IMG/VR virus record: IMGVR_UViG_2617270954_000006
Length of the DNA stretch: 6,705 bases
From: a virus
Lineage: Duplodnaviria > Heunggongvirae > Uroviricota > Caudoviricetes
Direction: 5' to 3' (one strand)
Positions 3,697-5,673 of this stretch are shown here, one piece after another. Positions within the stretch are counted from its first letter, which is position 1, and each line of letters starts with the position of its first letter. Both the position numbers and the translations under genes were made by a program. The notes under the pieces are model-generated. The model was given only the letters and a program-made list of their open reading frames with translations, searched no databases and was not told the DNA's origin.

Positions 3697-3781
3697 GGCT
3701 GGTGTTATTGAAAATATTTTCAGATATATATTACCTGGACGATGGTTAAGATTAATTTATTTAATTTTGGAGAGAAAACTC

Positions 3782-4240
3782 ATGAAACTGTTAAACATTC
3801 TTTTATCTGTTGTTTTAACTGTAAGTGCAACCGTCGCACAAGCAGAATCGGCATTGTGGAAGCGTAACAGTGTTGCCGGAACTGATATGTTCAGTATTGG
3901 TAATGTTTCTATTAACTGCACGACTAATCCAGAAGACAACAATTTGCTACCGCACTATGTGTGGATTTACGGTCATACCCCCACCCCGCTAAATCAGTAC
4001 GATTCTGATATCATTTTTATCATCAACGGTAAAGAGTATCCGGTCCCACCTGTCGACGGAACACGAATGAATGAGAACAAATGGGTACACTTTATCGATG
4101 CTATCGGTGAAGCCACGAAGTTCGACGTTTTAGTAAACGGTAAGAAAGTCGACAGCTATACCACAAATATCAAAAATGTGAAAAAGACTTTGGGTAACAA
4201 ATTCTACGGCAGTTGCTGGAGCACCTGGTTCCAGGAATAA
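3782..4240 (+). CDS. Small secreted protein with Sec signal peptide (152 aa precursor), function unknown
   Basis: ATG at 3782 with a GGAGA Shine-Dalgarno at 3769-3773. The N-terminus MKLLNILLSVVLTVSATVAQA|ES has the classic n-h-c signal peptide shape with an AxA cleavage site and no lipobox Cys. The mature protein has two Cys (possible disulfide). GC is low (about 36-40%). The TTG at 3767 offered by the ORF track is less likely than this ATG. Confidence 0.7.
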   Translation: MKLLNILLSVVLTVSATVAQAESALWKRNSVAGTDMFSIGNVSINCTTNPEDNNLLPHYVWIYGHTPTPLNQYDSDIIFIINGKEYPVPPVDGTRMNENKWVHFIDAIGEATKFDVLVNGKKVDSYTTNIKNVKKTLGNKFYGSCWSTWFQE

Positions 4241-4365
4241 TTGATAACGTGGTGTAAAACACCTCAGTTTAATTTAATACAGTGAGTGAAAATGAATATC
4301 ATAAAAATATTTTCTGCTTCAGATGTCACATATTTTATTAACTGAATGATTAACAGGAGAATCAG

Positions 4366-4905
4366 ATGAACTGGCATTATGAAAAAAATGGTGTACGTTA
4401 TGATAACGTAACAGAGGAAGATATTATTGAACGTATCCGCCGTGGTGAACTGAATGCATCAACACTGGTGTGGCAACAGGGCATGCTGGAATGGCAGCCA
4501 GTTTCAGCCACATCACTGGCGGAAATACTGAAACAAAGTGAAGTTCCTCCGGCCCTTCCGGGTCACCGCATTCCCGGAGGCGTTGTCTGGACGCTGGCAT
4601 TTGCCCCTTTGATTGGATACATACTTGAGATGTGGACTGCCGGGCTGAACGGTATGTCATTTGAACGGGCTTATGATGCAGTCAGCGAAGGCCAGTACTG
4701 GTTTATCTCTCTGATTCTGAATATTGCTCTGGGATATCTGGATGAACGAAAACTCCGTAAATCTGGCGTGGATACCACAGCATTTGGCTGGCTGGCATGG
4801 TTGATCCCGGTTTATCTGTGGCGTCGGGCAAAAATCCTCGGGCAAAAACCTGCTTATTTCTGGGTCTGGTTGGTTATGCTGATACTGGTGTTATTTACGG
4901 TCTGA
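4366..4905 (+). CDS. GYF_2 (DUF4339)-domain membrane protein, 179 aa, with 3-4 predicted C-terminal transmembrane helices
   Basis: AGGAG at 4353-4357, 8 nt before the ATG. The N-terminus W-H-Y-x-x-N-G-x-x-x-x-x-V-T-x-E-D-I-x-E-R-I-R-R-G-E-L-x-x-S-T-L-V-W-Q-Q-G-M-x-E-W-Q-P-V matches, from memory, the DUF4339/GYF_2 signature (aromatic start, G, VW..GM..W.P). It is followed by hydrophobic segments (VVWTLAFAPLIGYILEMW, YWFISLILNIALGYL, FGWLAWLIPVYLW, AYFWVWLVMLILVLFTV). Confidence 0.75.
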   Translation: MNWHYEKNGVRYDNVTEEDIIERIRRGELNASTLVWQQGMLEWQPVSATSLAEILKQSEVPPALPGHRIPGGVVWTLAFAPLIGYILEMWTAGLNGMSFERAYDAVSEGQYWFISLILNIALGYLDERKLRKSGVDTTAFGWLAWLIPVYLWRRAKILGQKPAYFWVWLVMLILVLFTV

Positions 4906-5174
4906 TATTCTTTATCGCAGAGTTTACTAAATAATCAGGTTATTAGTGTTCTTAACAGGTAAATGATGTTCATCATGGAACGGATATATTTTATTTGATT
5001 CAGGAGACAGTCAGAAACATAGTATAAATATATCGCCATGTTGAAGGTCATATCTTCAGGTATTTGTTTAATAAACAAGTCGGGGGTTAATCCTGACCTC
5101 TCGAGTGGATTATAAGTATTGCAGAAACAGTTTTTATACTTTTATTTAATATCAGAAACAATGGAGTAATTATC

Positions 5175-5588
5175 ATGAAAAATATCATCACTATTTTAAT
5201 GATTGCAGTTATCAGTTTCTTTACTGCTAATGTATCAGCAAACAATGCCGTTCCTTTACCAACCAACCTGACTGATGTTACTGACGGTACAGAATTCTGG
5301 TGTCAGGGTACTGATACTATCGACGGAGGTTGTGAATACCTGGGCACATCCAAAGACATGCAATACGGTCTGGTACACGCCATGGGGGGTACAGCGTGCT
5401 GGGATGGTTTATACGGCGTAATTAATTTCTATACCGGTAAAGCCCAGACCATCAAATACAACAACAATCAAAGTTGTGAAGGCAACATCACCGCCAGTTT
5501 CGTTACCCTGAAAAACGGTAAACCGGGCGTTAAACTTTACGACAATACGATTCATAAGGTTGTCGGGCTTGACGAAATCAAATTTTAA
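5175..5588 (+). CDS. Small secreted cysteine-containing protein with Sec signal peptide (137 aa precursor), function unknown
   Basis: GGAG at 5163-5166, 8 nt before the ATG. Signal peptide MKNIITILMIAVISFFTANVSA|NN. The mature protein, about 115 aa, has four Cys (two possible disulfides) and is Gly/Tyr/Asn/Thr-rich. It is immediately followed by a strong terminator. Confidence 0.75.
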   Translation: MKNIITILMIAVISFFTANVSANNAVPLPTNLTDVTDGTEFWCQGTDTIDGGCEYLGTSKDMQYGLVHAMGGTACWDGLYGVINFYTGKAQTIKYNNNQSCEGNITASFVTLKNGKPGVKLYDNTIHKVVGLDEIKF

Positions 5589-5637
5589 TGTATGAATTAT
5601 AGTATCTTATCTGCGCGTTATTAATATCAAATGTAAA

Positions 5638-5673
5638 TAAAGCCCCGGCCATTATGGCAGGGGCTTTATTTTT
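5638..5673 (+). terminator. Rho-independent terminator after the secreted-protein gene
   Basis: Stem TAAAGCCCC (5638-5646) pairs with GGGGCTTTA (5660-5668). Further inner pairing GCC/GGC is possible, with an ATTAT loop and a TTTTT run at 5669-5673. It lies 50 nt after the stop at 5588. Confidence 0.75.

Follow-up and report, generated by a model that had tools for sequence, protein, structure and literature searches.

A rare, low-GC cassette of three predicted envelope-protein genes in a cargo hotspot of CP4-57/CP4-44-type islands of Escherichia coli

The window analysed here, i.e. the whole 6,705-nucleotide stretch of the IMG/VR virus record IMGVR_UViG_2617270954_000006 (Caudoviricetes), is part of a CP4-57/CP4-44-type tRNA-Ser island of Escherichia coli. 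At positions 3741-5867, it carries a rare, exchangeable cassette of low GC (guanine plus cytosine) content, located in a cargo hotspot that is bounded on the left by the terminator of a dynamin–RdcB-like–patatin operon and on the right by a DUF932–antirestriction–RadC–CbeA/CbtA backbone. Judged by sequence, the three genes of this cassette (hereafter A, B and C) encode three envelope proteins, A and C being periplasmic and B being located in the inner membrane. A is a divergent member of the YfjT/YkfB family (PF27224), C appears to be an orthologue-like relative of gp084 of the jumbo phage SPN3US and gp203 of Asesino, and purifying selection acts on B and C, which are conserved as a pair, A being dispensable. 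We are highly confident of this anatomy and of the family assignments. As for the role of the cassette as a whole, our best explanation is an envelope-level activity directed against phages or peptidoglycan hydrolases; it is put forward tentatively and may well prove wrong.

The window region is identical to E. coli chromosomes, and in strain E2 it lies within an island at a tRNA-Ser gene. The left part of the E2 island holds ter (tellurite) genes, a YeeP-type GTPase, the dynamin, the RdcB/YjcZ-like protein, the patatin, A, B and C, and its right part a frameshifted DUF905, DUF932, antirestriction, RadC, DUF987, CbeA/CbtA, DUF5983, DUF957 and DUF4942 genes; this backbone matches the K-12 cryptic elements CP4-57, CP4-6 and CP4-44. 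The prophage-like setting proposed in an initial annotation, made from the sequence alone, is thus that of an integrative island. A, B and C were found in 77, 78 and 78, respectively, of 5426 complete E. coli genomes, plus one plasmid, versus 2483-2588 genomes (approx. 46-48%) for the adjacent dynamin–RdcB-like–patatin operon, in agreement with the view that these genes are accessory cargo rather than core. A module spanning both this operon and the cassette was considered and rejected, the operon being approximately 30 times commoner and missing from the Salmonella B–C locus described below.

The three genes, taken from the list of open reading frames and all located on the plus strand (table 1), have a GC content of 41.4% (A), 48.3% (B) and 42.0% (C), and their spacers of 38.3%, 28.0% and 30.9%. 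Overall, GC is 40.5% over positions 3654-5640, versus 52.7% over 1-3653, where the upstream operon has 51-54%, and 57.6% for DUF932; the fall is clear in A, C and the spacers, and milder in B, as the initial annotation had implied. Each gene has its own ribosome-binding site (GGAG or AGGAG, 7-10 nt 5' of each ATG), and the spacers within the cassette measure 125 bp (A–B) and 269 bp (B–C). The initial annotation had described a low-GC block of this kind (approximately 36-45% in the two secreted-protein genes and in the intergenic DNA, against approximately 53-58%), with a separate ribosome-binding site and spacer for each gene and with two secreted cysteine-containing proteins around a GYF_2 membrane protein, and these features are all upheld. 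The extent that it gave, 3700-5640, needs small corrections: its end cuts the terminator-like hairpin at 5639-5667, and the strain-variable part runs from approximately 3741 to approximately 5867.

Indeed, the left flank is conserved to approximately 3740 in the window, in the O157:H7 strain F8092B and in strain WP5-S18-ESBL-09, and the comparison with the latter places the left break at approximately 3740 and the point where both sequences rejoin at approximately 5868. In F8092B, DUF932 follows 340 bp after the operon, and the remnant in between keeps the leader of A together with degenerate first codons of this gene, indicating that the F8092B state is a deletion of approximately 3800-5784. 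All states of the slot have the same flanks, to approximately 3740 and from approximately 5868, which, from their sequence, could serve as arms for homologous exchange. Moreover, genes for exported proteins of these families recur, variably, in this island type (yfjS-yfjT and yafY-ykfB in K-12, and others in Yersinia and Klebsiella). Since such genes are regular in these islands, and since the ‘empty’ site retains the A leader, the polymorphism of the slot looks like the result of cassettes being exchanged and deleted, and not of a single clean insertion. No att-like (attachment-site) direct repeats were found at the cassette edges, where only short AT-rich repeats lie upstream of genes.

In WP5-S18-ESBL-09, the slot holds the genes of X (225 residues) and C' (136 residues) instead of A-B-C (L024 6109-7212), and this common alternative cassette, in which C' lies directly downstream of X, is present in 1884-2383 of the 5426 complete genomes (approx. 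35-44%). C' shares 35% identity with C (E 1e-21), and the phage protein gp084 is a further match of C'. X, the true start of which is likely an internal Met yielding a signal peptide, aligns with E. coli Ivy over the inhibitory-loop region (CKANTCG versus CKPHDCG), with a Smith–Waterman score of 60 versus 27.6±4.4 in shuffled sequences, none of 1000 shuffles reaching 60.

C links the cassette with phages. The N-terminus of C, MKNIITILMIAVISFFTANVSA/NN (the slash marks the predicted cleavage), displays in a heuristic analysis a K-containing n-region, a hydrophobic core and an AXA-type site (VSA/N); the Ala at position -1 is invariant or nearly so in the families of both A and C. Four cysteines (C43, C53, C75 and C101) are invariant in 23 homologues, across three subfamilies, and the structural model is all-β, a β-meander. 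Residues 1-135 of C match positions 1-134 of the 135 positions of phrog_8968 (E 1.8e-37), and a tblastn search retrieved a protein 38-42% identical to C, at 100% coverage, in 53 jumbo-phage records, among them those of Salmonella SPN3US, the Erwinia phages Asesino and phiEaH2, Proteus phage 7 and two phages of E. coli. The same type of search retrieved no phage homologue for A, B or X. Outside Enterobacterales and their phages, the distribution of the C family is narrow: no match to C was found in an IMG/VR scan, and the sole match in GTDB species representatives, in a Dehalococcoidia metagenome-assembled genome (L011; 37% over 45 residues, E 4e-6 relative to candidate stretches only), is probably due to chance.

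In SPN3US-type jumbo phages, the relative of C belongs to a conserved run of four small exported proteins, gp086–gp083 in SPN3US, encoded upstream of an SMC-like gene (L002 3099-4808; also in L003 and L015). Of these, gp085, gp084 and gp083 form a set of secreted paralogues sharing one four-cysteine pattern, and the fourth, gp086, has an N-terminal transmembrane anchor and no detectable similarity to gp083-085. Island homologues are known for all four types: a gp085-like gene lies beside YfjT in Yersinia rohdei, a gp083/204-like protein of 154 residues beside YfjT in Klebsiella, and a metagenomic contig (L026) carries two YfjT genes (one product being 74% identical to A), a gp086/gp201 homologue (47-48%) and a further C-like protein. 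The Y. rohdei island protein (L012 7001-7501) is 68% identical to Asesino gp202 (L003 3493-3978), a level of sequence identity suggesting that genes passed between jumbo phages and CP4-57-type islands fairly recently. A jumbo-phage origin of the low GC itself was also considered and is unsupported, the phage loci having 47-49% GC versus 41-42% in A and C.

A more distant relationship probably connects C to the lipoproteins YfjS and YafY (PF20494). When a C profile enlarged with the Yersinia, Klebsiella and metagenomic island sequences was compared with these lipoproteins, hhalign returned a probability of 83% (E 8.8e-6), the alignment spanning 83 columns and taking in the second cysteine pair, versus 6% for a control with the YfjT family; a smaller C profile gave only 12%. 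C itself has no lipobox (its site being of the AXA type) and no Pfam match, and is therefore not a PF20494 member, so that C and YfjS/YafY probably belong, as far as these profiles go, to one superfamily and not to the same family. Considering this link together with the recurrent presence of C-superfamily genes beside YfjT-family genes, the K-12 pairs yfjS–yfjT and yafY–ykfB look like the same type of two-gene unit.

A could be assigned to a family as well, contrary to the initial impression that none of the three proteins was recognizable. Indeed, A is 31-32% identical to K-12 YfjT and YkfB over 142-144 residues (E 1e-21 and 2e-21), a profile search retrieved 226 family proteins, A forms a clade of its own, and two database proteins, 99% (P0126) and 90% (P0131) identical to A, carry a precomputed PF27224 assignment. 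Its N-terminus, MKLLNILLSVVLTVSATVAQA/ES, heuristically shows the same organization as that of C (K-containing n-region, hydrophobic core, AXA-type site AQA/E), and its two cysteines, C46 within an INCT motif and the C-terminal C145, are both invariant in 30 homologues, which conserve the signal region as well. The usual partner just upstream, a YfjS/YafY lipoprotein or another C-superfamily gene, is missing for A, which is preceded only by the patatin terminator and a 128 bp spacer; a C-superfamily gene sits instead downstream, beyond B. The AlphaFold2 (AF2) model of A (predicted local distance difference test, pLDDT, 77.8) gave no confident match to a fold in PDB, and sequence searches of solved structures with A, B and C gave nothing significant.

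B starts with a GYF_2 (DUF4339) domain (Pfam match of residues 3-48, 45.7 bits versus a cut-off of 25.8, E 5.4e-12), followed by hydrophobic segments of a C-terminal membrane module. An exhaustive search placed it in a large family: 1557 cluster representatives were retrieved at E<=1e-3, and 513 of E<=1e-10, the matches being mostly full-length. Among the top 150 representatives, 127 were full-length matches in which the motifs are kept, i.e. the GYF core, a PPPL right after GYF, and the membrane-module motifs N..W.LAFAP.IG, DE..LK.AG.DT and PVYL..RA. The proline-rich PPPL/PPxLPG linker, conserved family-wide, corresponds to residues 61-66 of B (window 4546-4563). According to published work (PMC11135422), bacterial GYF proteins combine a ‘receptor module’ in the membrane with a cytosolic GYF domain, which binds to a proline-rich sequence; one may speculate that the PPxLPG linker is a self-ligand or oligomerization ligand of the GYF domain. 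B homologues are also found in other mobile elements next to lipoproteins.

The variable C-terminal parts of this family are informative about topology. C-terminal extensions of at least 60 residues occur in 29 of the 127 full-length representatives, and 12 of these have exactly two cysteines. In one case (L020 5001-6028), a secreted two-cysteine protein of 116 residues is encoded just downstream of a B homologue, and this protein is 45% identical (E 6e-28) to the C-terminal fused domain of another B homologue (P0218, residues 324-423). As a fused domain thus also exists as a secreted protein, the C-terminus of the B family would face the periplasm and work with periplasmic domains. By analogy with the fusions and with this one pair, we infer for B a topology with the N-terminus in and the C-terminus out, together with an extracytoplasmic partner, and the family as a whole would be built to connect periplasmic domains with a cytoplasmic adaptor. 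The C-terminal extensions of other family members are varied, and some resemble, by eye, DUF4352-like, DUF1566-like and PD40/TolB-like domains.

Two further comparisons separate the B–C pair from A. In E. coli, the cassette exists as two alleles, the second one in approximately 40 of 77 carriers. At the four loci of this second allele that were examined, A is interrupted by a stop at W26 in all four and also by a frameshift in three, and B and C are intact; relative to the window copy, the ratio of non-synonymous to synonymous substitution rates (dN/dS) is 0.63 for A, 0.05-0.08 for B and 0.27 for C. Salmonella enterica likewise has B and C side by side (86% and 88% identical, respectively), upstream of DUF905–DUF932, with dN/dS of 0.075 and 0.098 at synonymous divergences (dS) of 1.14 and 0.65, respectively, and neither the dynamin operon nor A is present at this locus. 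What precedes them instead is a YfjR-like regulator, a secreted protein of 188 residues, a YfjS/YafY lipoprotein and a 150-residue protein approximately 50% identical to gp085/gp202. The retention of B–C without A in Salmonella, together with the disruption of A in the second allele, indicates that B–C is a conserved pair and A an optional and decaying gene. The three genes consequently do not form an obligate module.

How could such a set of proteins act? C would be exported by Sec, form its disulfide bonds in the periplasm and bind an envelope target, most plausibly a peptidoglycan hydrolase or the machinery that an infecting phage uses for ejection or to penetrate the cell wall. Its binding would exclude superinfecting phages or restrain wall cleavage, in a way analogous to T4 Spackle or Ivy-type inhibitors and without homology to them. 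B would span the inner membrane and, through its periplasmic C-terminus, dock C or sense its state, its cytoplasmic GYF domain linking C to a proline-rich partner, possibly the PPxLPG linker of B itself; A would be an optional periplasmic accessory. We favour an envelope-level role against phages or hydrolases because of the jumbo-phage arrays, the hotspot with its Ivy-like neighbour, the small size, export and conserved cysteines of the proteins and the architecture of the B family. In particular, the maintenance of C-family arrays by virulent jumbo phages speaks for a function in the course of infection and not in the long-term physiology of the host. The superinfection-exclusion or lysozyme-inhibitor-like roles listed in the initial annotation may still hold, with indirect support from the jumbo-phage homologues of C and from the Ivy-like neighbour of C'. 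By these analogies, the mechanism with C as periplasmic binder and B as membrane dock or relay is conceivable, if doubtful. A bolder version strikes us as improbable: the C superfamily (C, C', YfjS/YafY and gp083-085) would be a new class of periplasmic effectors, shared by jumbo phages and islands in approximately 40% of E. coli, that block wall penetration or DNA entry of competing phages or restrain peptidoglycan hydrolases, and B–C would be a split GYF transmembrane receptor relaying to a proline-rich cytoplasmic partner.

Several observations speak against this proposal. PADLOC-DB v2 yielded no defence-model match for A, B, C, X, C' or their relatives, and PHROG placed A, B, C, X and C' in no family with a named function (all ‘unknown function’). 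No B homologue was detected by tblastn in the jumbo phages carrying C-family genes, and B-family proteins are common where C is missing. The putative specific contact between B and C would draw on linkage in two genera and on analogy with fusions, and a C-like domain apparently fused to a B homologue (P0296, GGTACPAMFF…TC) was discarded as not significant (hidden Markov model, HMM, E 0.63). The signal peptides and the topology of B are themselves heuristic predictions. As for the likeness to Ivy, it belongs to the neighbour of a C paralogue and not to the window cassette, and the Ivy HMM matches of X are sub-threshold (Pfam E 0.16, NCBIfam E 0.12).

Other explanations have to be weighed against the same data. 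The exported proteins could be modulators of the host envelope (‘morons’) that alter envelope physiology, stress signalling (e.g. Cpx) or the cell surface and thereby affect fitness or colonization. YafY, inferred here as a distant C-superfamily relative, is one of only two E. coli lipoproteins that activate Cpx when overproduced (PMC6538781), a FliA promoter located within yafY drives K-12 ykfB (PMC4183435), and genes for adhesins (Cah/Ag43) and tellurite resistance are present in the carrier islands too. However, deletions of yafY and ykfB had no phenotype in the reported assays, on lipoprotein-trafficking stress for yafY (PMC6538781) and on motility for ykfB (PMC4183435), no consensus FliA site was found in the window, and the same family is arrayed in virulent jumbo phages, which kill their host within one cycle and thus hardly fit a long-term role in host fitness; we therefore regard this explanation as unlikely. 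That A and C are small, Sec-exported and endowed with conserved disulfide cysteines would equally suit orphan immunity proteins or inhibitors gathered at mobile hotspots and directed against exogenous wall-degrading enzymes, such as animal lysozymes, amidase or muramidase effectors of type VI secretion systems, or colicin-like toxins. The Ivy-like protein beside a C paralogue in approximately 35-44% of E. coli fits the lysozyme-inhibitor idea of the initial annotation, and A, B and C matched no family HMM or fold of the known inhibitors (Ivy, MliC/PliC, PliI and PliG), a MliC/PliC-like fold, initially listed among the candidates, finding no sequence or fold homology in any of the three; we consider this explanation quite unlikely.

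A function in island transfer, either in entry or in surface exclusion of the TraS/TraT type, would be consistent with the resemblance of the backbone genes (DUF932, ArdB/KlcA-type antirestriction, RadC and DUF987) to leading-region genes of conjugative elements, and with the lipoproteins next to B homologues in other mobile elements. Yet no conjugation gene is present in the 42 kb of island inspected, no similarity to known exclusion proteins was detected, and the sole phage carriers of the C family are virulent jumbo phages, which do not conjugate, so that such a function seems highly unlikely. The cassette might also be decaying hitch-hiker DNA without current function, its low GC and rarity reflecting a foreign origin. 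The stop shared by the second-allele copies of A and the dN/dS of this gene would be expected from decay, as would the frameshift in the adjacent DUF905 and the deletion of the cassette in many strains, but B and C are intact at all loci inspected, with dN/dS of 0.05-0.27 even when the E. coli–Salmonella split is included (dS 0.65-1.14), and the families are conserved across large distances, which makes decay of the whole cassette very unlikely. Finally, C and A could be secreted binders of glycans on host or bacterial surfaces, lectin-like or toxin-B-subunit-like, with C as an oligomeric β-propeller and A as an adhesin-like protein. The model of C does resemble two β-propeller blades, with a β-propeller lectin and designed propeller fragments among its low-Z matches, and A has a ‘putative adhesin’ as best viral structural neighbour (template-modelling score 0.6, E 1.8e-5), weak matches to IalB-like proteins and a below-threshold Pfam match to the ConA-like lectin superfamily (E 0.015). 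The lectin-like idea of the initial annotation thus retains a weak and generic echo, while its AB5 B-subunit fold is not supported by the models (a β-meander for C, mixed β/α for A), which gave no match to an oligonucleotide/oligosaccharide-binding fold, and an A-subunit-like open reading frame is lacking; of all the alternatives, this one appears the most improbable.

The coordinates of the cassette and of its surroundings are collected in table 1.

Table 1. Features of the window (positions in nucleotides from its first letter).
Feature	Position	Strand	Remarks
Dynamin, C-terminal part	26-1684		dynamin–RdcB-like–patatin operon
RdcB/YjcZ-like gene	1681-2586		same operon as dynamin and patatin
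Patatin gene	2583-3653		last gene of the dynamin–RdcB-like–patatin operon
Terminator-like hairpin and T-run	3670-3689	+	closes the dynamin–RdcB-like–patatin operon; from a scan; in the left flank common to all slot variants
Exchangeable segment (A, B, C, AT-rich spacers, DUF905 remnant)	3741-5867	+	from strain comparison
Gene A (152 residues)	3782-4240	+	alternative TTG start at 3767
Gene B (179 residues)	4366-4905	+	GYF_2 membrane protein
Small hairpin in the B–C spacer	5079-5097	+	
Gene C (137 residues)	5175-5588	+	four-cysteine, predicted secreted all-β protein
Intrinsic-terminator-like hairpin, AAAGCCCC…GGGGCTTT	5639-5667 (T-run to 5673)	+	3' of C
Frameshifted DUF905 remnant (backbone gene, YkfF-like)	5685-5866	+	mapped from the Prokaryotic Genome Annotation Pipeline (PGAP) annotation of the E. 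coli copy
DUF932 backbone gene, start only	5999-6705	+	runs past the window end; right edge of the slot

The non-coding parts of the cassette present some features of their own. Two compensatory substitutions keep the small hairpin of the B–C spacer intact in Salmonella, and this spacer is overall about as conserved as coding DNA. An AT-rich motif, TTTATTTRAT…, is found upstream of A (3756-3776), within the B–C spacer (4990-5010) and just upstream of C (5141-5161); these repeats could be a common regulatory element or could arise by chance in AT-rich DNA. The strong terminator-like hairpin 3' of C, with its T-run, falls inside a longer inverted repeat (5613-5693), and an Rfam scan gave nothing at gathering score, with only weak terminator look-alikes at 5590-5709. 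Further downstream, DUF905 is intact after C in Salmonella, and the slot variant with X–C' lacks it.

On the other side, the dynamin–RdcB-like–patatin operon may represent a membrane-remodelling or defence module of its own. Its patatin is weakly similar to phospholipase effectors of the cyclic-oligonucleotide-based anti-phage signalling system (CBASS) type (PADLOC E 3.5e-6; NCBIfam CBASS lipase E 7.6e-5, far under the cut-off). K-12 yjcZ is FliA-dependent, with a promoter inside the dynamin-like yjdA (PMC4183435), and mobile homologues of the ykfB and yjcZ types adjoin in the window, where the FliA consensus is lacking.

The families PF27224 and phrog_8968, as well as membrane proteins containing PF14237, were already known, and RefSeq labels the genes as hypothetical or DUF. 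New in this work are the definition of the cassette and of its hotspot, the link between jumbo phages and islands, the evidence that the C superfamily probably takes in YfjS/YafY, the repeated adjacency of C-superfamily and YfjT-family genes, the fusion evidence for the GYF_2 family and the Ivy-like neighbour. Accordingly, yfjS/yfjT and yafY/ykfB of the K-12 ‘y-ome’ would belong to a wider, mobile set of exported proteins that is exchanged at a single hotspot in a very common type of island and that the islands have in common with SPN3US-like jumbo phages (up to 68% identity, between a Yersinia island and an Erwinia phage). Anonymous hypothetical proteins are thereby given a cheaply testable hypothesis, namely that they exclude phages or keep wall hydrolases in check at the envelope, and the large DUF4339/GYF_2 membrane family a first comparative hint of a periplasmic partner. 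Should the hypothesis fail, a cleaner annotation of a common E. coli island hotspot remains.

Among known systems, Ivy, MliC/PliC and the T4 proteins Spackle (Sp) and Imm are, like A, B and C, bacterial or phage-encoded proteins of small size that are targeted to the periplasm or the membrane. The B–C pairing resembles the periplasmic and membrane pairing of T4 Sp and Imm, and since A, B and C have no detected sequence or fold homology to any of these proteins, the parallel is one of functional analogy only. Myxococcus GltJ shares with B an N-terminal cytosolic GYF_2 domain and a membrane module; the GYF domain of GltJ binds a proline-rich sequence, and this architecture was called a versatile transmembrane switch or receptor (PMC11135422). 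However, B lacks a zinc-ribbon domain, a long linker and a large periplasmic domain, its similarity to GltJ is weak and confined to the GYF domain (NCBIfam E 0.0039; PDB 7z3c, E 0.041), and the island is unconnected with gliding motility.

In the SPN3US gp086–gp083 and Asesino gp201–gp204 arrays, gp084/gp203 has a C-like signal peptide and the four invariant cysteines, and the Salmonella island presents a gp085-like gene before its gp084-like gene, in the same order as in the phage. The phages differ by the tandem of three paralogues plus gp086 and by the absence of a GYF_2 gene; a YfjT homologue was not found in the stretches examined. Further parallels are the K-12 pairs yfjS–yfjT (CP4-57) and yafY–ykfB (CP4-6), located, like the window cassette, between a YfjP/YkfA-type GTPase and an antirestriction–RadC–toxin/antitoxin backbone, and likewise coding for exported envelope proteins, A being homologous to YfjT/YkfB and C probably a distant homologue of YfjS/YafY. 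In K-12, however, the lipoproteins YfjS and YafY are encoded upstream of YfjT and YkfB, whereas C is predicted to be soluble, with a signal-peptidase-I site, and lies downstream of A; moreover, a GYF_2 membrane gene separates A from C, the GC content is approximately 10 points below the 51-53% of the K-12 pairs, and neither a YfjR/WYL regulator gene nor a ypjK-like gene is adjacent. From its sequence, the cassette of the window thus looks like a rearranged, low-GC relative of the K-12 yfjS-yfjT and yafY-ykfB pairs, to which a GYF_2 membrane gene has been added.

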